Of a stretch of DNA of 64,000 bases, positions 1 through 8,442 are shown piece after piece. The notes below the pieces were generated by a model that saw only the letters and a list, made by a program, of their open reading frames with translations, ran no database searches and was not told the DNA's origin. Where the stretch lies: NCBI GenBank assembly GCA_041671645.1, contig JBAZBD010000001.1, forward strand, positions 337,217-401,216, read 5' to 3'. Source of the stretch: Patescibacteria group bacterium (lineage in GTDB: Bacteria; Patescibacteriota; UBA1384; XYA2-FULL-43-10; 1-14-0-10-43-13). Position 1 is the first letter of the stretch, and each line of letters begins with the position of its first letter. A program made the position numbers and the translations under genes.

Positions 1-96
1 AGCCTCATTTTGGTTTGCCAAAATGGCTGGGTCTTGCATTTTCTGCTCCAGCTCGAAGAATCGGTCAAGGATAGATTTTAGTTTTTCTTTGTTCAT
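1..96 (-). CDS. Peptide chain release factor, N-terminal fragment (gene continues past the window edge)
   Basis: The reverse complement of 1..96 opens with ATG and reads MNKEKLKSILDRFFELEQKMQDPAILANQNEA. The L..L..R.EEL....DP pattern matches the N-terminal helical domain of RF1/RF2. An rpmE neighbour is common for prfA. Confidence 0.45.
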   Translation of the reverse strand, partial: MNKEKLKSILDRFFELEQKMQDPAILANQNEA

Positions 97-174
97 GACA
101 TTTTTATAGCAAAAATCGGCTTACTCACCAGAATTATATCTGGTTTTCGACCGATTTCATATAGAACTGATGAG

Positions 175-441
175 TTATTTCTCTTCTTTGACTTTTTTCA
201 CTTTTTCAGGCTTCTTGGCAGCTTCTTCCTTCATTTTCTTGGAAGCCTCGAGACGAGCCTTGAATTTGTCAACGCGGCCAGCAGTATCAACCAATTTCTG
301 TTTGCCTGTGAAGAAAGGATGGCATGCTGAACAAATCTCGACTTTGATCTCTTCGCGAGTCGAACCTGTGAGATATTCGCCGCCACAAGCACATTTGGCG
401 ACTACATCTTTGTTATAAGTTGGGTGGATGTCTTTTTTCAT
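175..441 (-). CDS. rpmE: 50S ribosomal protein L31
   Basis: 88 aa starting MKKDIHP, with CxxC...[12 protein letters not shown] zinc-ribbon motifs typical of L31. Confidence 0.9.
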
Positions 442-566
442 AAAATATCTTATCGATAACTAATTTCTTTTGAAATTCTAGCACAGTATTGAACTTTAGT
501 CAACGCAAGAGTATAAGTTTATTAGCGCTAACCGAAAGGGGGCGCAGAAAAAGGGGGAGCATAATT

Positions 567-1157
567 ATGCTTACGCGAAATCAGAAGTCTTGGATTTGCT
601 TCCGCACTGACGGAAGCGTGGTCGGCAACGCACTCTATCACGATTCGATTGCCCAGGCCATTTCATCACTGGACACTGGGTCGAATATGGAGTACTTCCT
701 GACCCTCAGAAATGGGCCAAATGAGCAAAGTATAGCTTGCACCAAGCACTTAGATCATCTCTGTTATCTCTCAGCTTGGCGCCTGATTCCTGATTCAATT
801 CGGTATGGGCATACTGATGCTCATACCCTGTATCAACTCTGGTTGGAATACTATTGCGGATGGCAAACGGAACAGCAATATAAGGAGAGTTTCACTCGGT
901 TAAGTTGCTCGGATAATCTCAAGGAGGCCTTGTCTGATCCGACAGGCCGTCATTTCTTTCTTAGATTGTTGCACACTGCAAGAAGAGACAGGATCGACAT
1001 CCTAAGAAGGACGGCCCAAAATCTGCTTCAACTGACAAAGGGTCCAAGGCTACAGCTCTTTGAGCTGGAATTCGCTCGCATTGTCACGCCGAACTTCAAA
1101 TTGGACTTAACCCAGAAGTACTGGGAGAGACGGGGGATCACAGGAAAAGTTTTGTAG
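567..1157 (+). CDS. Hypothetical protein (Cys/His-rich)
   Basis: ORF 489..1157. The internal ATG at 567 is preceded by a strong RBS (aaaaagggggagc). No recognisable family. Confidence 0.5.
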   Translation: MLTRNQKSWICFRTDGSVVGNALYHDSIAQAISSLDTGSNMEYFLTLRNGPNEQSIACTKHLDHLCYLSAWRLIPDSIRYGHTDAHTLYQLWLEYYCGWQTEQQYKESFTRLSCSDNLKEALSDPTGRHFFLRLLHTARRDRIDILRRTAQNLLQLTKGPRLQLFELEFARIVTPNFKLDLTQKYWERRGITGKVL

Positions 1158-1388
1158 ACTGGACAGACGACAGCAGTTGCCTGTCTTTTTATTTTCCCTT
1201 GCAAAAAGTCACAAAATGATGTAATATAGTCAAAGAATTAAGTTCACCAAAATTCACACGCTCAACTCCAGGTTTCTTCCTCATCCGCCAGCTGGCGGAT
1301 CGGGGCAATAGCTGAGCGGCGGTATAAAGAAACCCAAGAACAGTTCAAAGTTCATAAAGTCTATAAAGTTATAAAGTAGAAAGGTTTT

Positions 1389-2108
1389 TTGATGACGAAT
1401 TTACCAACCCTTAGGGAAATGCTGGACGCTGGTGTTCATTTCGGACACAAGACTTCACGTTGGTTCCCAAAGATGGCCCCTTACATTTACACCTCAAAGT
1501 CTGGTGTACATATTATCAATTTGGAAAAGACAGAGGAAGCAGTCCAGAAAGCGGCCGATTTTGTACGTAGAGAAGCTGCGGCTGGCAAGACCTTCATCTT
1601 CGTCGGTACCAAGAAGCAGACTGGCTCTATCATCAAAGAGGAAGCTGGCAAGGCTGGCATTTCTTATGTCAACATTCGTTGGCTCGGTGGCACAATCACA
1701 AACTTCGAGGCTATCAGAGGCGCGATCCAGAGATACAAGAAGCAAGTTGAAGAGATTGCCCTTGATGACGAAGGAAAGTCAGAAATGACCAAGTCTGAGC
1801 TTTCACGCGTGCGCAAAGACGTCGCTCGCGGTGAGAAGTTCTTGGGCGGCCTAGTCAATTTGGACAGAAAACCAGATGCATTGATTCTCTTCGGTTCCCA
1901 TGACGAGAAAATTGCACTCAAAGAAGCCAAATGCGACCATATCCCAGTCATCGCACTCGTTGACACAAACGCTGATCCAAACGCTGTCGAGTATCCTATC
2001 CCAGCCAATGATGACGCAACCAAATCTGTCAGACTCTTCGCCTCTCTCTTCGCAGGTATCATCAAAGAAGCCAGAGACAAAGTCAAAGTCACAGAAGACA
2101 AGAAATAA
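1389..2108 (+). CDS. rpsB: 30S ribosomal protein S2
   Basis: 239 aa. N-terminus LREMLDAGVHFGHKTSRWFPKMAPYIY is an S2 signature. Sits in a conserved rpsB-tsf pair. Confidence 0.95.
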   Translation: MMTNLPTLREMLDAGVHFGHKTSRWFPKMAPYIYTSKSGVHIINLEKTEEAVQKAADFVRREAAAGKTFIFVGTKKQTGSIIKEEAGKAGISYVNIRWLGGTITNFEAIRGAIQRYKKQVEEIALDDEGKSEMTKSELSRVRKDVARGEKFLGGLVNLDRKPDALILFGSHDEKIALKEAKCDHIPVIALVDTNADPNAVEYPIPANDDATKSVRLFASLFAGIIKEARDKVKVTEDKK

Positions 2109-2144
2109 GACAATTTCAAATCAATTAAATATTGAAGGAATAAT

Positions 2145-2738
2145 ATGGCTATTACTGCCAAAGAAATTTCAGAACTCAGAGCTCGAACCGGTATCGGTAT
2201 GATGGAGTGCAAGAAAGCACTCGAAGAGACCAATGGCGACCAGGAGAAGGCGATCGAAGTATTGCGCAAACGCGGTATGGCCAAAGCGGCCAAGAGAGCA
2301 GAGCGCGAGACCAAAAATGGTGTGATTGATTCATACATTCACAGCAACGGCAAAATCGGCGTCATGGTCGAAGTATTGGCAGAAACTGATTTCGTCGCCA
2401 AGAACGATGAATTCAAAGCTTTCGCTCACGATATCGCTCTTCACATCGCGGCAATGAACTCAAAATATATCGCAAAGGAAAATGTTCCAGCCGAAATCGT
2501 AGAAAAAGAAAAAGCAATCTTGGTCGAAGAGGTCAAGGCTTTGGGCAAACCAGCCGAGATGGCCGAGAAGATCGCTGAAGGCAAGATCAACAAATTTCTC
2601 GAAGAAATCTGTTTGCTCGATCAGCCTTTCGTCAAGGATCCGTCCAAGACAGTTGGCGATTTGCTTACTGACCTGACTTCCAAGATCGGCGAGAAGATCG
2701 TAATCGGGCGGTTTGTCAGATACGAAATCGGTGAGTAA
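2145..2738 (+). CDS. tsf: Elongation factor Ts (short form)
   Basis: 197 aa. EISELRARTGIGMMECKKAL is the UBA-like N-terminus of EF-Ts. Directly downstream of rpsB. Confidence 0.9.
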   Translation: MAITAKEISELRARTGIGMMECKKALEETNGDQEKAIEVLRKRGMAKAAKRAERETKNGVIDSYIHSNGKIGVMVEVLAETDFVAKNDEFKAFAHDIALHIAAMNSKYIAKENVPAEIVEKEKAILVEEVKALGKPAEMAEKIAEGKINKFLEEICLLDQPFVKDPSKTVGDLLTDLTSKIGEKIVIGRFVRYEIGE

Positions 2739-2756
2739 AAAAAATTTCAAATATAG

Positions 2757-2785
2757 AAAATGACCGCAGCAATGCGGTCATTTTT
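2757..2785 (+). terminator. Intrinsic terminator after tsf
   Basis: Stem tgaccgca/tgcggtca followed by a T-run. A second perfect palindrome atcaccgtcaca..tgtgacggtgat at 2835..2859 could serve minus-strand transcripts. Confidence 0.6.
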
Positions 2786-2876
2786 GTAGCTCGTTCGCGA
2801 ATTACACTCACGATATTGCAATGACAAAATAAATATCACCGTCACATTGTGACGGTGATTGCTGAGATGAAGGTGG

Positions 2877-3023
2877 TCATCTTTTAATTCCAGTTATCCA
2901 AGCATGATATAGGATTGCAGAAATGACACCTAGCCCTGTCCACGTAAGATCGTGAAAATAGATTCCGGAGAATGCAGTACCATAAATTAGTATGCTATAG
3001 ACTGTTTGCGTCTGACTGTTCAT
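2877..3023 (-). CDS. Small hydrophobic protein (48 aa), absent from the ORF track
   Basis: Reverse complement reads ATG..TGA = MNSQTQTVYSILIYGTAFSGIYFHDLTWTGLGVISAILYHAWITGIKR. An RBS aggaga lies 7 nt upstream. The gene is driven by a duplicated sigma70-like promoter cassette at 3051..3091. Confidence 0.4.
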   Translation of the reverse strand: MNSQTQTVYSILIYGTAFSGIYFHDLTWTGLGVISAILYHAWITGIKR

Positions 3024-3050
3024 ATCAATTCTCCTTCAGATTTGATGTCT

Positions 3051-3091
3051 TTATTATAAACTAAATCTCAAAATAGTCAATAGAGACAAAC
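3051..3091 (-). promoter_or_regulatory. Promoter cassette copy A (minus-strand -35 TTGACT, 16 nt spacer, -10 TATAAT)
   Basis: A 41 bp element about 93 percent identical to 3744..3784. The -10 sits at 3053..3058 and the -35 at 3075..3080 on the minus strand, about 25 nt upstream of the 48-aa gene start. Confidence 0.55.
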
Positions 3092-3223
3092 GTACGAAAT
3101 CGGAGAGTAAAGTTATAATCTTGCATTATAGCATATAGAAAATGGTGTTGGAGAAATCCGGCGCCATTTTTTTGTTGTGAAAATAAAAAGTAGTCATCAA
3201 CATTAGATGACTACTGAATTTGA

Positions 3224-3697
3224 TTATTCGGCCGTTTTTGTTAGCCATTCTTCCATCCTGGCGATGTCTTTGGCTGAGACGTTTGATGTGGAGAATTTGT
3301 ATCCTCCAATCTTTAGGCCAGTGGCCGAGAGATGCCTGATTGCCTCGGACCAGCTCCCTAAGCCTTCCCTGAGAATATGCTCTTCCAGCTGGGCCCAATA
3401 CGCCATTTTGTACATCTGATTGTCTCTTACCAGAGTCTGGTGGAGGACAACGATCACAACTGATCCCAATGAAAGTGCATCATTTTCTGAATTTCCGCTT
3501 CTGATAGTGTTGGCTCCAAGAAACAATGCGTCTTCCTCATCGGGGATATGTGCCAAGTCGATCCCTGTTTTCTGGTGAGACATATTCAAGTATGCTGATC
3601 TTTCCTCAACCTGAGTCAAGATAATAAGGGTTGCATGGACCGCTTCGTCTACAACAGTCTGTATGTTGGATGCGAAAAGTTCGTCGAGACTTTTCAT
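3224..3697 (-). CDS. Hypothetical protein (157 aa)
   Basis: Clean ORF with RBS aagggga. Its promoter is copy B of the duplicated cassette. A terminator hairpin agtagtcatc..gatgactact lies at 3188..3214. No family recognised. Confidence 0.55.
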   Translation of the reverse strand: MKSLDELFASNIQTVVDEAVHATLIILTQVEERSAYLNMSHQKTGIDLAHIPDEEDALFLGANTIRSGNSENDALSLGSVVIVVLHQTLVRDNQMYKMAYWAQLEEHILREGLGSWSEAIRHLSATGLKIGGYKFSTSNVSAKDIARMEEWLTKTAE

Positions 3698-3743
3698 TTT
3701 CGTTCCCCTTGTTTGTTTTTTCTTAGCCCTGCTAAGATGTCGT

Positions 3744-3784
3744 TATTATAAACTAAAACTCGAATTAGTCAATAGAGACAAACA
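3744..3784 (-). promoter_or_regulatory. Promoter cassette copy B (-35 TTGACT / -10 TATAAT) for the 157-aa gene
   Basis: Near-identical to 3051..3091. Minus-strand -10 at 3745..3750 and -35 at 3767..3772. Confidence 0.55.
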
Positions 3785-3809
3785 AGCAAGATTGAGCTAA
3801 TATAAGGGC

Positions 3810-4511
3810 ATGAAATACAAAAGAATTTTATTGAAACTATCAGGTGAGGCTTTGCTTGGGAATGATCACAATATCGATCCCAAAGCTTGTGATTTTGTGG
3901 CGGGCGAAATCAAAGAATTGGTGGGGGTCGGCACAGAGGTAGTCGTAGTCCTGGGCGGCGGTAATATTTTCCGCGGTAGAGCGGCGGAAGAGCACGGCAT
4001 GAAGAGAATTACGGGTGATTATATTGGCATGTTGGCGACGGTGATGAACTCTCTGGCTCTCCGAAGCGCGTTATCAAAGATAGATGTTGAGAGTCGTGTC
4101 GCCTCTGCATTGGACATGCCGAAGGTCTGCGAGCCATATATCCGCGACAAGGCAATTCGCCATCTGGAAAAGGGCCGAGTCGTGATCGCGGCAGCTGGTA
4201 GCGGCAATCCGTATTTCTCGACCGATACAGCGGCAGCGATCAGAGCGTGCGAATTGGACTGTAACATCGTGCTCAAAGCGACCAAAGTTGATGGTGTTTA
4301 TGACAAAGACCCTGTGAAAAACGCTGATGCGGTCAAAATACCAAATCTTACCTACCTGGATGTGATCAATAAAAAAATCGAGGTGATGGACAGTACAGCG
4401 ATCACTCTTTGCATGGACAATGCTGTGCCGATTTGCGTGTTCGAACTTATGAAACATGGTAATATTAAGAAAGTAGTAATGGGCGAGACTGTAGGAACCA
4501 TTATTAATTAA
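3810..4511 (+). CDS. pyrH: UMP kinase
   Basis: ILLKLSGEAL...VVVLGGGNIFRG glycine-rich motifs. Conserved pyrH-frr order. Confidence 0.95.
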   Translation: MKYKRILLKLSGEALLGNDHNIDPKACDFVAGEIKELVGVGTEVVVVLGGGNIFRGRAAEEHGMKRITGDYIGMLATVMNSLALRSALSKIDVESRVASALDMPKVCEPYIRDKAIRHLEKGRVVIAAAGSGNPYFSTDTAAAIRACELDCNIVLKATKVDGVYDKDPVKNADAVKIPNLTYLDVINKKIEVMDSTAITLCMDNAVPICVFELMKHGNIKKVVMGETVGTIIN

Positions 4512-4523
4512 AAAAGGATAGCC

Positions 4524-5084
4524 ATGTCAGTTGATAATTTATTGAAAGAAGCCAAGCCAAAAATGTTGGCGGCGATCGAAAATTTGAAAGAAGAATTGTC
4601 TCGAGTCCGGACAGGCCGAGCCAACCCAGCTATTTTGGATGGGGTGATGGTGCCATATTATGGTTCTAGCTCGACAATCAGTGCGATGGCTTCTGTCAGC
4701 GTGCCAGAAGCGAATCAGATTGTGATCAAGCCTTGGGATCGTAACGTCTTGGGCGATATTGAGACGGCAATTCGGGCTTCAAACGTTGGCCTCAACCCAG
4801 TAAATGATGGCCAGCAGATCAGACTTGTCTTGCCTCCGATGACCGAAGAGAGACGCCGTGATATTGTCACTCAGGTCAAAAAGTCTGGGGAGGAGACCAA
4901 AGTTTCTCTTCGCAATGTTCGAAGAGAAATCTGGGACAAGGTTCAGACAGCTGAGAAAAACAAAGAAGTGACCGAGGACGATCGGTATCGCGCCGAGGAC
5001 GAATTGAACAAAATCGTTACCGAGATGAATTCGACCGCCGATAGAGTAGTGGCCGAAAAAGAACAAGAAATAATGAAAATCTAA
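4524..5084 (+). CDS. frr: Ribosome recycling factor
   Basis: 186 aa. The MKxxxExLKxELSxVRTGRANPxxLDxV N-terminus is typical of RRF. Confidence 0.95.
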   Translation: MSVDNLLKEAKPKMLAAIENLKEELSRVRTGRANPAILDGVMVPYYGSSSTISAMASVSVPEANQIVIKPWDRNVLGDIETAIRASNVGLNPVNDGQQIRLVLPPMTEERRRDIVTQVKKSGEETKVSLRNVRREIWDKVQTAEKNKEVTEDDRYRAEDELNKIVTEMNSTADRVVAEKEQEIMKI

Positions 5085-5101
5085 CAGAATTCTGAGCAAT
5101 T

Positions 5102-6187
5102 ATGTTTATCACAATTTTGGCCTTTATATTTGTCCTGGGAATACTGATTCTAGTTCATGAGCTAGGTCATTTTATCGTGGCGAAAATGGTTGGAGTGAAA
5201 GTCGAGGAGTTCTCTATCGGTTTTCCGCCTCGGATTTTCTCATTCAAAAAAGGCGAGACGAAGTATTCCATTGGTGCTCTGATTTTTGGCGGCTATGTCA
5301 AAATGCTAGGCGAGGAGACCGAGTCAGCCAGCCCGAGAGCTTTTAACCAGCAGAAGCCAGGGAAGCGCTTCGCCATTTCTGTTGCTGGTGTAATTATGAA
5401 CTTTGTCCTGGCCTGGATAATTCTATCGATCGGTCTGAGCATCGGGATGACGCCGCCGGTCACGCCTTCTGACGAAGTCCCATTCAGCCAAGCGACCAAA
5501 GGCCAAGTCTACATCGTCGAGTTTCTTGACGGTTCATCTGCTCAAAAAGCGGGGGTTAAGCTCGGAGACCAAATAGTCAAATTGACCAAGGGAACAGACG
5601 AAGTCACACCGACAACTCCAGAGCAAGTGACAGATTTTTCCGGACGGAATAAGGGATCGGAAATTACGATCAAGATAAATCGAAACAATGTGCCAGTAGA
5701 GCAGACAATCTTGCTTCCTGCCACAGAAGCGCCGCTAGGGATCGGGATGGTCAACCAGTCTATCGTCAAAGTGAAATGGTATGCCGCGCCGTATGTTGCT
5801 CTTCTTGAGACTTGGGGCATCGTCAAAGTCATATTTATGTTTCTGGGAAGTTTCTTCTCCCAATTATTTCACACAGGGACCTTGTCTGATCAAGTTGGCG
5901 GGCCAGTCGCAATCTACAATCTTTCTGGAGACGCGGCTCGCGCCGGAATCGGTGTGTTGTTCCAATTTATCGCTATGCTCTCGATCAATTTGGGCTTGAT
6001 CAATATTCTGCCGATTCCAGCTTTGGACGGTGGCCGTGCCCTTTTCATTATCCTTGAAAAAATCTTTGGCAAGCGTATCTTGAAGGAGAACATCGAAAAT
6101 ATTATTCACAACATTGGCTTCGCAGTGCTTATGCTTTTGGTGCTGGCTGTGACGGTCAAGGATATAATCAGACTATTTCACAAATAA
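5102..6187 (+). CDS. rseP: Site-2 (RIP) zinc metalloprotease RseP
   Basis: HELGHF zinc motif in TM1, a PDZ-like middle region, and a C-terminal LDGG motif. Confidence 0.85.
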   Translation: MFITILAFIFVLGILILVHELGHFIVAKMVGVKVEEFSIGFPPRIFSFKKGETKYSIGALIFGGYVKMLGEETESASPRAFNQQKPGKRFAISVAGVIMNFVLAWIILSIGLSIGMTPPVTPSDEVPFSQATKGQVYIVEFLDGSSAQKAGVKLGDQIVKLTKGTDEVTPTTPEQVTDFSGRNKGSEITIKINRNNVPVEQTILLPATEAPLGIGMVNQSIVKVKWYAAPYVALLETWGIVKVIFMFLGSFFSQLFHTGTLSDQVGGPVAIYNLSGDAARAGIGVLFQFIAMLSINLGLINILPIPALDGGRALFIILEKIFGKRILKENIENIIHNIGFAVLMLLVLAVTVKDIIRLFHK

Positions 6188-6205
6188 GATAGATATTGGA
6201 GTCGT

Positions 6206-7429
6206 ATGAAACAATCACAACTTTTCTTGAAAACTCGTAAAGAGGTGCCAGCTGATGCTGACTCGATCAATGCTTCTTATCTGATCAGGGCTTCTTTTGC
6301 TGAAAAGCAGATGGCAGGAGTGTATTCTCTACTTCCGCTTGGGCTCCGAGTCATCAAGAAGATCGAGAATATTGTTCGCGAAGAGATGAACAAAATCGGC
6401 GGCCAAGAAGTTTTGATGAACGTGCTCCAGCCCAAAGAGCTTTGGGATGAAACTGGCCGATCAGAATCCGCGGTCGATATTTTCTATAAACTAGTCGACG
6501 CTCGTGGCAAGACTATACTACTCGCCCCAACTCATGAGGAGCAGGTGATCGATATTGTGCGCAAGAAGGTCAAATCTTACAAAGATTTGCCACTCGCTCT
6601 TTACCAAATCCAGACCAAATTCCGAAATGAGCCAAGAGCCAAGTCCGGGCTTCTGCGCGGCCGAGAGTTCATCATGAAGGATTTATACAGCTTCCATGAA
6701 AGCGAAGAAGATTTCAATTCCTATTATGAGAGATCGAAGGAAGCTTACAATGAAGTTTTCAAGAGATTCGGCCTTGATGCTCGAATCGTCGAGGCTTCTG
6801 GCGGAATATTTTCCAAATATTCTCATGAGTTTCAGGTTCTGACGGCGGTGGGCGAGGACACAATATATTATTGCGACAAATGTGATTTTGCACAAAACAA
6901 AGAGGTAGCCGAAGTGACTGAGGGCGATAAATGTCCAAAATGTGGTGCTCTGGTTAAAGTCGGCCGTGGCATTGAAGTCGGCAATATTTTCCCTCTCAAA
7001 GACAAATATTCCAAACCGATGAATGGTACTTTCCTGGACAGAGACGGCAAAGAGCAGGTCTTCACCATGGGGTGTTATGGCATCGGGATCACTCGTGCCT
7101 TGGCCACAATTGTCGAAGTTCACTATGACGTAGCCAAGAACAAAATGGTATGGCCAGTTGAAGTCGCACCCTACAAAGTCCATTTGATTTCATTGAACCA
7201 AAACGAAAAGGCTGAGGAAATTTACAAAGAATTACTCGAGAAAAATGTTGAAGTTCTATATGATGATCGTGAAATGTCAGCAGGCGAGAAATTCGCCGAG
7301 GCCGATCTGGTCGGTAGCCCAATTCGGATCGTCGTAAGCAAGAAGACTCTCGATGCTGATTCAGTAGAAATGGTACGGGGCGGGGAGATGACGATTGTAA
7401 AAATATCTGATTTGGACAAAGCGCTCTAA
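6206..7429 (+). CDS. proS: Prolyl-tRNA synthetase, short form lacking the INS editing domain
   Basis: Strong similarity along its length to bacterial ProRS (YLIRA..LPLG.RV..KIENIVREEM, HEE, QIQTKFRNE.R.KSGLLRGREF.MKD.YSFH). At 407 aa there is no room for the ~180 aa insertion domain. Confidence 0.85.
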   Translation: MKQSQLFLKTRKEVPADADSINASYLIRASFAEKQMAGVYSLLPLGLRVIKKIENIVREEMNKIGGQEVLMNVLQPKELWDETGRSESAVDIFYKLVDARGKTILLAPTHEEQVIDIVRKKVKSYKDLPLALYQIQTKFRNEPRAKSGLLRGREFIMKDLYSFHESEEDFNSYYERSKEAYNEVFKRFGLDARIVEASGGIFSKYSHEFQVLTAVGEDTIYYCDKCDFAQNKEVAEVTEGDKCPKCGALVKVGRGIEVGNIFPLKDKYSKPMNGTFLDRDGKEQVFTMGCYGIGITRALATIVEVHYDVAKNKMVWPVEVAPYKVHLISLNQNEKAEEIYKELLEKNVEVLYDDREMSAGEKFAEADLVGSPIRIVVSKKTLDADSVEMVRGGEMTIVKISDLDKAL

Positions 7430-7539
7430 GAAATACCTGATAGCAAAGACGCGGCCTCCTGTGAGACCGCTTTTGTTATTGAATAATTATTAATTTATGT
7501 TATAATATCACCAAACGTTTTTGAAGGGGTGGTAGTCTA

Positions 7540-8442
7540 ATGACAGTAAAAACGCGTAGAAATGCAGAGCGTTCTGATAAAAATGTACACCAAAAAAATG
7601 TACATCAGTATCTATTATCGAGCGATATACTTGAGAAGGATATCGAACGCGTACTTGAGGAGCTGCGTCCTCGGATAGAGGATTACAAGAAGGCTCACGC
7701 ACAGAAAACAGAAGTGCCGATTCGTCGTTTCATTTCTCTTGCTCGGATCGGTCATATCTGCCAGACTACGATCTGGACTGTGAGAGAGGCCTATGAGCGA
7801 CTATCTGAAGGAGATCGGGCTATTTACAGCCGTGGACTGGCCATCGCTGCCATAGTCCGCGAGCGGGAAAAACAGACTGATCGTCGTAACTATCGGAGTT
7901 ATCCGAGTAAGTTGCGTTGGGCTGTGATGAGATTTGTCAGGAGACGGATCAGGGCAATGCGTCCGATTATCAGCATTGATGATTTGGCACGGCAGTACGA
8001 TATGCATCCAGATGCAGTTAGTCAGCTACTTCGCAATTGCCTCAGCCATGAGGAACACGAGACGTGGAACAAGCTTGTTCATCTGGAAAAGCGGACGACT
8101 GTGAAGCAGGTGAAGAAAAGAGACCCAGAAGGTTTGGGTACTCACAACGGTTCTGGCAAGTTGGACAACAAAAATCTTGCTGTCGCCAGAGGCTGGCAGA
8201 GATATCCCGAATGTCAGCTTCATCGTCTCCGTGACTTCGTCATTGAAAATTTCCATGCAGCATCTGCTGGAGAGACGACAATAGTCGGATATCGTCAACT
8301 ACGCAAGACGTTTGGGGTCGCAGTCTCCGTAATTGGAGACTATCTGCTCTCAGCACTTTCGCTTGAAATGTTTCTTGAGCGCAAGAGACTCTCTCAGTCA
8401 CATCCTCGAAAGGGGAAAGAACCGACTGGTTCGTCAGAATAA
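7540..8442 (+). CDS. Hypothetical protein (300 aa), basic, possible HTH
   Basis: Long ORF with RBS. No family recognised. IDDLARQYDMHPDAVSQLL resembles a helix-turn-helix. Confidence 0.5.
   Translation: MTVKTRRNAERSDKNVHQKNVHQYLLSSDILEKDIERVLEELRPRIEDYKKAHAQKTEVPIRRFISLARIGHICQTTIWTVREAYERLSEGDRAIYSRGLAIAAIVREREKQTDRRNYRSYPSKLRWAVMRFVRRRIRAMRPIISIDDLARQYDMHPDAVSQLLRNCLSHEEHETWNKLVHLEKRTTVKQVKKRDPEGLGTHNGSGKLDNKNLAVARGWQRYPECQLHRLRDFVIENFHAASAGETTIVGYRQLRKTFGVAVSVIGDYLLSALSLEMFLERKRLSQSHPRKGKEPTGSSE

Follow-up and report, generated by a model that had tools for sequence, protein, structure and literature searches.

The stretch analyzed here, hereafter the window, comprises 64,000 nucleotides (nt) of contig JBAZBD010000001.1 (GenBank assembly GCA_041671645.1), which belongs to a metagenome-assembled genome of Patescibacteria (Candidate Phyla Radiation, CPR). 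Our subject is the spacer between tsf and pyrH, which in this window holds two small minus-strand open reading frames (ORFs) of 48 and 157 amino acids (aa), each located behind one copy of a duplicated promoter cassette (P1 and P2). The gap between tsf and pyrH is 1071 bp in the window, compared with 116–142 bp in relatives with an empty spacer; this confirms the insertion of extra DNA (~0.95 kb) reported in a preliminary description of the sequence, and the finding of two monocistronic minus-strand genes behind duplicated near-consensus promoters was also borne out. We consider it likely that the spacer is a strain-variable slot for accessory genes, arranged around a back-to-back promoter pair, and that the window holds two stacked units of this slot. 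The features of the locus are as follows.

2145–2738, plus strand: tsf (EF-Ts, 197 aa), intact
2721–3092: unit 1, composed of tsf tail A, terminator A, a minus-strand terminator, the 48-aa gene and P1
2721–2739, plus strand: tsf tail copy A (TACGAAATCGGTGAGTAAA), the last 6 codons and stop of tsf; the copy in use
2756–2785, plus strand: terminator A, the predicted working tsf terminator (-18.6 kcal/mol), with a stem resembling the tsf terminator of L004 type
2835–2859, minus strand: predicted intrinsic terminator of the 48-aa gene (ATCACCGTCACA/TGTGACGGTGAT plus T-run)
2877–3023, minus strand: 48-aa ORF (MNSQTQTVYSILIYGTAFSGIYFHDLTWTGLGVISAILYHAWITGIKR) with two moderately hydrophobic segments, not called by gene finders
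3031–3037, minus strand: Shine-Dalgarno (SD) sequence GAAGGAG, 7 nt before the ATG of the 48-aa ORF and unpaired in the centroid fold
3044–3091, minus strand: P1, with -35 TTGACT at 3080–3075 and -10 TATAAT at 3058–3053
3093–3783: unit 2, composed of tsf tail B, terminator B, a minus-strand terminator, the 157-aa gene and P2
3093–3111, plus strand: tsf tail copy B (TACGAAATCGGAGAGTAAA), a non-coding relic 1 nt from P1
3133–3179, plus strand: terminator B, with a ATATAGAAAATG lead, an 11-bp core stem containing 3 G-U pairs, and a T7 run
3189–3215, minus strand: predicted intrinsic terminator of the 157-aa gene
3224–3697, minus strand: 157-aa ORFan (NCBI WC227_01715, hypothetical protein), predicted soluble, with host-like codon usage
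Upstream of the 157-aa ORF, minus strand: SD sequence AAGGGGA
3736–3783, minus strand: P2, predicted to drive the 157-aa gene, with -35 TTGACT at 3772–3767 and -10 TATAAT at 3750–3745
3775–3809, plus strand: putative pyrH promoter, with -35 GAGACA at 3775–3780, a 17-nt spacer, -10 TAATAT at 3798–3803 and 6 nt to the ATG at 3810
3810–4511, plus strand: pyrH (UMP kinase, 233 aa)

The promoter repeat spans 48 nt (3044–3091 and 3736–3783), and 44 of these 48 positions are identical; the duplicated cassette is therefore real and slightly longer than the 41-nt core (38/41 identical, 93%) in which it was first noticed. Both copies carry TTGACT-16-TATAAT on the minus strand, matching the promoter consensus at 11 of 12 positions, and behind each promoter the order is the same: an SD sequence, an ORF, and an intrinsic terminator just past the stop codon. 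An 18-mer within the repeat (GTTTGTCTCTATTGACTA) occurs exactly twice in the 64 kb, compared with an expectation of 0.04 occurrences. On the plus strand, P1 also holds a stranded copy of the pyrH -35 element (GAGACA, 3083–3088) that has no matching -10 element; similarity between P1 and P2 stops 3 nt past GAGACA, and no -10 lies at the right distance in P1. A small hairpin (3721–3737, TCTTAGCCCTGCTAAGA) is located at the extreme 5' end of the predicted 157-aa mRNA and may be a 5' stabilizing stem-loop.

A second repeat, overlooked in the preliminary description, involves the end of tsf. The last 19 nt of the gene (2721–2739) recur at 3093–3111 with 18 of 19 positions identical. Farther along, ATATAGAAAATG at 2751–2762 recurs at 3133–3144, and each copy runs into a terminator hairpin followed by a T-run. 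The second of these hairpins (~3137–3179) has a folding energy of -20.7 kcal/mol on the plus strand and only -8.7 kcal/mol on the minus strand, because three of its stem pairs are G-U. A plus-strand intrinsic terminator had previously been placed at 3151–3190; its existence is upheld, and its position is corrected to ~3137–3179. It had been read as an orphan that ends an antisense RNA. Terminator B instead is a stranded copy of a tsf terminator behind a duplicated tsf tail: it is 88% identical over 43 nt to the tsf terminator of the closest relative, L001, and it also matches that of L108 (AGAGAAAATGGTGCCGGAAAACTGGCGCCATTTTTT), to both of which it is orthologous. Based on these alignments, terminator B and tail B appear to be the ancestral tsf end of the sub-lineage, stranded between the two units. 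A perfect plus-strand TATAAT (3113–3118), which has no -35 partner, lies between the relic tsf stop and terminator B; the same TATAAT occurs past the tsf stop in L108 (~1572–1577) and not in L001. An RNA starting from this site in the window would be at most ~50 nt long, i.e., the terminator hairpin itself.

The repeats thus comprise a 48-nt promoter, a 19-nt tsf tail and a 12-nt terminator lead, and they enclose unrelated interiors. A simple tandem duplication was ruled out, as the unit interiors, both minus-strand terminators and both plus-strand terminator stems differ, and a comparison of the 48-aa and 157-aa ORFs showed that they share nothing. The arrangement has the look of two alleles because the closest relatives have the type-B terminator, whereas in unit 1 both terminator A and the minus-strand terminator are similar to those of the L004 group. 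Within tsf itself no breakpoint was visible: the gene has ~91% nt identity to that of L001 up to its end, and the window is ~87–95% identical to L001 up to the last bases of the gene. The Logan assembly of run SRR18595301, which is independent, is identical to the window over 8.7 kb, so the stacked structure is not an artifact of one assembler.

Extra DNA of this kind could also derive from a mobile element or prophage remnant, or from an assembly chimera of two strains. The 48-nt direct repeats flank the extra DNA, the 3' end of a host gene is duplicated as it is in many integrative elements, and the 157-aa gene is unique to this genome. However, we found no integrase, transposase or terminal inverted repeat at the locus, nothing similar in phage, plasmid or viral collections, and host-like codon usage; moreover, in relatives the repeat belongs to the locus as its native promoter. 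A chimera does not predict the P1|tsf-tail junction, which is present in neither single-unit allele and which the second assembler reproduced exactly. We regard both versions of this explanation as highly improbable, and of a decayed larger mobile element, which the preliminary description had named as a finding that would overturn its reading, there was no sign.

The window and its relatives were aligned on the pyrH ATG. The conserved core reads AGTCAA-TA-GAGACA on the plus strand, in which AGTCAA is the -35 box of the minus-strand promoter. GTCAATAGAGACA, exactly or with 1–2 changes, is found at a fixed distance from the pyrH ATG in L003, L004, L096, L099, L101, L113, L115, L116, L117 and L121, and the GAGACA element varies to GTGACA, GTTACA or AAGACA in some relatives. 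In the window and in every aligned relative, the pyrH ATG is preceded at exactly 6 nt by a TAnnAT element (TAATAT, TATTAT, TAGAAT or TAAGAT). The minus-strand promoter matches the consensus at 11 of 12 positions in the window and relatives, and a promoter scan independently called GAGACA-17-TATTAT in L004 and L113, where the plus-strand match is 9/12. The repeat therefore seems, from its conservation, to be the clade's native divergent promoter region.

The position of TAnnAT 6 nt before the ATG in all relatives suggests that pyrH is leaderless, and probably so throughout the clade. Neither in the window nor in relatives does pyrH have a usable SD sequence, unlike rpsB, tsf and frr in the window, each of which has a clear one; an in-frame stop (3798–3800) lies three codons before the ATG in the window. 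The TAnnAT/ATG arrangement seen at window positions 3798–3812 recurs in 14 related loci.

The conserved segment upstream of the -35 box had been taken in the preliminary description as a possible shared operator, implying a regulon. According to this explanation the cassette carries an operator (GTTTGTCTCTA upstream of -35), and both genes, and perhaps pyrH, answer one signal. The segment is indeed identical in both copies and strongly conserved among relatives with ~77–86% PyrH identity (identical in several, with 1–2 changes in the rest), and it contains a weakly palindromic GTC-N6-GAC. However, the supposed operator is most simply read as the -35 box of pyrH seen from the opposite strand. 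The complementary strand of 'gtttgtctct' contains GAGACA, an element that relatives conserve even where the slot is empty (one case), and the conserved bases coincide exactly with a -35 hexamer; the spacing from this hexamer to the conserved -10, itself 6 nt ahead of the pyrH ATG, is 17 nt. L002 and L111, which have no outward promoter on the minus strand, still retain GTGACAAAC-17-TAATAT, and in L116, where the spacer is empty (142 bp), GTCAATAGAGACAAAC is present in full. Any two xxGAC(A/T) -35 boxes facing opposite ways will produce the weak palindrome, and the identity of P1 and P2 is uninformative about constraint, given that the two are recent paralogues. A dispersed regulon also found no support in copy number, with no further cassette elsewhere in the 64-kb window and a single match in the 413-kb contig of relative L083 (the same locus as L004); scans of metagenomes and viral sequences, excluding the window's own contig, returned mostly unrelated strong promoters. 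Co-regulation through a shared operator is thus an unlikely account of the cassette.

We gathered relatives via PyrH, exact-protein look-ups and a metagenome scan for the cassette. The content of the slot in these relatives was as follows.

L001 (94% PyrH identity): empty spacer of 133 bp, tsf terminator only
L108 (85% PyrH identity): empty spacer of 116 bp, tsf terminator only
L111, L114 and L116: spacers of 120–142 bp, no cargo
L002/L110: 277-bp spacer with no ORF, holding a non-coding element only
L004 (= L083): cargo of 58 aa, minus strand, directly behind the cassette
L113: cargo of 55 aa, minus strand, directly behind the cassette
L096: cargo of 47 aa, minus strand, directly behind the cassette
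L101: cargo of 58 aa, minus strand, directly behind the cassette
L121: cargo of 47 aa, minus strand, directly behind the cassette
L099: cargo of 84 aa with three hydrophobic segments, minus strand, directly behind the cassette
L117: cargo of 112 aa with two hydrophobic segments and a tail, minus strand, directly behind the cassette

The slot is closed by ATCACCG...CGGTGAT plus a T-run in L004, L096, L101 and L113, and the same sequence is found in unit 1 of the window (2835–2859). The cargo itself is variable. The L096 and L113 peptides are clearly homologous (49% identity, z = 26), with a ratio of nonsynonymous to synonymous substitution rates (dN/dS) of ~0.24 compared with 0.03–0.04 for the flanking tsf and pyrH. 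The cargo of L101 and L121 is marginally related to this pair (z ~5), that of L004, L099 and L117 shows no significant similarity to the pair or to one another, and most pairs of slot peptides have z < 2.7. Among L004, L096, L101 and L113, identity is 90–100% in tsf and in the pyrH promoter and start, and it falls to ~40–50% over the cargo, a mosaic pattern that is consistent with allele replacement. The 112-aa cargo of L117 (2049–2387, minus strand) is visibly more G+C-rich than its flanks, which suggests that it was imported from a different lineage.

Database searches with the relatives' peptides yielded only sub-threshold matches, namely holin families of PHROGs at E ~0.2 and NF041681 ('HGxxPAAW') at E = 0.022, the latter with a score of 14.8 bits against a cut-off of 33 bits. 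All of these were rejected as noise from hydrophobic composition.

Between the tsf and cargo terminators of relatives lies a conserved non-coding element of ~145–165 nt with two long hairpins, which is absent from the window. It is found in L113 (2541–2705), L096 (~3023–3170), L101 (~673–820) and L002 (5793–5937), and it is shortened in L004 (~5605–5665); its tail is present in L121 (1–30). RNAalifold predicted 42 pairs from four sequences of the element, 9 of them with compensatory changes. Rfam gave no match in window positions 1–8000 or in the relatives' spacers, the element included. The element is a candidate for a so far undescribed structured RNA in this CPR clade.

Both ORFs in the window are real genes. 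In each case only the annotated frame scores positively for codon usage: the log-odds per codon are 0.19 and 0.10 (long genes of the window, 0.25 ± 0.08), and all five other frames score below zero. Pfam, PADLOC, PHROGs and NCBIfam contain no family for either product. In a word-indexed search of 5.8 billion entries, the 157-aa protein matched itself alone; a full phmmer scan of 1.84 billion representatives added three matches, which we judged spurious, as they involve short stretches that are repeated many times within giant repetitive proteins. The preliminary description had likewise recognized no family for this protein. The 48-aa peptide was absent from the protein collection searched. 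Its ORF and strong ribosome-binding site stand as previously described, but its hydrophobicity is only moderate: the grand average of hydropathy (GRAVY) is 0.47, the uncharged stretches are 17 and 14 residues long, and the best 15-residue window contains 8 residues that are I, V, L, F, C, M or A. Membrane association of the 48-aa product is possible.

The 48-aa gene had been proposed as a type I toxin-like module, in which an RNA, antisense or overlapping and ending at the ~3137–3179 terminator, would repress a membrane toxin. The ORF is small, partly hydrophobic, intergenic and missed by gene callers, and type I loci are often found in variable spacers and in tandem (PMC2887945). A weak plus-strand promoter-like site (9/12) lies within the ORF (2923–2950), and transcripts from it would stop at terminator B. 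However, terminator B is fully accounted for as the stranded tsf terminator with its duplicated tail, and sites of 9/12 are no more frequent than chance (3 observed, 3.0 expected). In relatives that share the slot there is neither a conserved antisense promoter nor room for one, as pyrH starts ~70 nt from the predicted cargo transcription start. One candidate in L113, TTTCCA-17-TATAAT, was rejected; it is the complement of the terminator U-tract, and neither L101 nor L004 conserves it.

Known type I toxin mRNAs have long, structured, translation-blocked leaders. The predicted 48-aa mRNA is the opposite, with an unstructured 5' untranslated region (UTR) of ~22 nt and a strong, unpaired SD sequence behind an 11/12 promoter. 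We took criteria for type I toxins from Fozo et al. 2010 (PMC2887945) and from general knowledge; such toxins are small proteins (<70 aa) with a predicted transmembrane segment, for which the heuristic of that study requires that at least 10 of 15 residues be I, V, L, F, C, M or A (PMC2887945). The 48-aa peptide falls within the size limit, but its 8 of 15 residues are below the hydrophobicity threshold. No toxin family of Pfam or NCBIfam matched at E ≤ 1, and none was found in PADLOC or PHROGs. The second unit of the supposed tandem encodes an unrelated soluble protein of 157 aa, and the repetition covers the promoter and tsf tail but leaves out the ORF. We therefore consider a type I toxin-antitoxin module very improbable here: the hydrophobic small ORF, the promoter duplication and the apparently orphaned terminator, which gave that appearance, are each explained otherwise by the anatomy of the locus.

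The stacked-slot reading suggests how the locus may work. The plus-strand half of the promoter pair (GAGACA-17-TAnnAT) would start a probably leaderless pyrH mRNA, and the minus-strand half (TTGACT-16/17-TATAAT) would fire outward into the spacer. Any ORF placed between this outward promoter and the terminator beside the tsf terminator would then be expressed as a short monocistronic mRNA; across relatives, the slot is either empty or occupied by different, mostly unrelated small membrane proteins. In the window, the 48-aa and 157-aa genes would be transcribed constitutively and independently of each other from strong sigma-70-type promoters. The stranded terminator B would halt plus-strand transcripts that reach it, and the terminator of the 157-aa gene (3189–3215) would keep the 157-aa transcript out of P1. 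As a working assumption, the smaller gene (48 aa) would encode a membrane-associated protein, and the 157-aa protein would be soluble and lineage-specific; both would be accessory and dispensable rather than a toxin-antitoxin pair.

The two units may have arisen when two alleles of one slot were joined in series. This could have occurred by a Campbell-type single crossover in the shared promoter, through which a circularized fragment of tail B, terminator B, the 157-aa gene and the promoter entered a chromosome with the peptide allele. Alternatively, a homologous crossover in tsf could have been combined with an illegitimate join at P1|tail B (3091/3093).

Several points weigh against this reading or limit it. 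Repeats of 19–48 nt cannot decide between the recombination routes. The plus-strand pyrH promoter of the window matches the consensus at 8 of 12 positions (GAGACA/TAATAT) and was not called by the promoter scan, and the proposed promoters, terminators and leaderless pyrH are consensus matches. In shuffling tests against the relatives' slot peptides, the 48-aa peptide gave nothing significant (best z = 1.8), and a G.YF.HD resemblance to the L004 cargo was rejected on the same grounds (z = 1.8); the peptide is assigned as slot cargo because of its position, promoter and shared terminator sequence. The AlphaFold2 model of the 157-aa protein, built from a single sequence, was unusable (predicted local distance difference test score 46.5, predicted template modeling score 0.36). 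Finally, the search for cassette copies covered 64 kb of the 868-kb genome.

A more far-reaching version of the slot reading is tentative, and we hold it to be doubtful. In this version, the spacer in a subgroup of Patescibacteria is an always-on dock at the promoter of the essential pyrH gene, in which highly divergent small membrane proteins are swapped between strains, and at times stacked, by recombination, and the 48-aa and 157-aa genes are two alleles of such cargo. If true, the dock would be a minimal integrase-free system that diversifies a component of the surface or membrane, and it would perhaps serve strain-specific dealings with hosts, phages or competitors.

The wider neighborhood of the slot contains the following genes.

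175–441, minus strand: rpmE, the first gene of the window
567–1157, plus strand: hypothetical ORF of 196 aa, between rpmE and rpsB
1389–2108: rpsB, before tsf
4524–5084: frr, followed by an RseP-like protease and proS

The 196-aa ORF, which is listed as 489–1157 when a TTG start is used, has its own terminator and matched no Pfam family. Between rpmE and rpsB, no gene is called in relatives, and the gap is ~240 bp in L001. This ORF is a second strain-specific ORFan insertion in the same conserved neighborhood.

For organisms without genetics, the locus yields testable predictions: a pyrH mRNA that has no leader, a bidirectional promoter of compact size, and tiny strain-specific proteins that are expressed strongly and constitutively. 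The slot would represent a recombination hotspot in the otherwise rigid rpsB-tsf-pyrH-frr block and could serve as a strain marker, and its scaffold of promoter and terminator could provide a natural site for expression.

Bacteria commonly carry such islets. Among known systems, the closest are the minimal mobile elements (MMEs) of Neisseria and, in a broader sense, hotspots of recombination that lie between conserved core genes. As in MMEs, fixed flanking genes (here tsf and pyrH) hold different, unrelated whole-gene cargo or nothing, mobility genes are lacking, and identity drops sharply at the edges of the cargo; exchange presumably occurs via DNA uptake and homologous recombination in the flanks, to which the mosaic pattern and the duplicated flank pieces point here. 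Unlike in MMEs, the expression signals of the slot stay while the ORF changes, with the outward promoter fused to the pyrH promoter and the terminator conserved in one subgroup. The cargo is also tiny (47–157 aa), and in this genome two alleles are stacked, with the tsf tail and promoter duplicated.

With type I loci (hok/sok, ldr/rdl, ibs/sib, zor/orz and fst), the window shares a short, partly hydrophobic ORF at a variable intergenic site, a duplicated regulatory sequence, and an ORF missed by gene callers (PMC2887945). It differs from them in several respects: an antitoxin RNA gene is missing, the two repeats precede unrelated ORFs, the predicted leader is short and open and lies behind a near-consensus promoter, no toxin family matches, and the hydrophobic segments are below the usual threshold. 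The promoter region resembles back-to-back divergent sigma-70 promoters, with opposed -35 boxes 2 bp apart that each have a properly spaced -10, and the 6-nt distance between the plus-strand -10 and the start codon is that expected of leaderless mRNAs, a likeness seen here at the level of sequence. Integron gene cassettes offer a further parallel: one site with a resident promoter serves for the expression of exchangeable ORFs that lack promoters of their own, and stacking is possible. Unlike in integrons, the neighborhood contains no integrase ORF, the cargo borders carry no attI or attC-like sites, and the junction between the units is formed by the promoter and the tsf tail.

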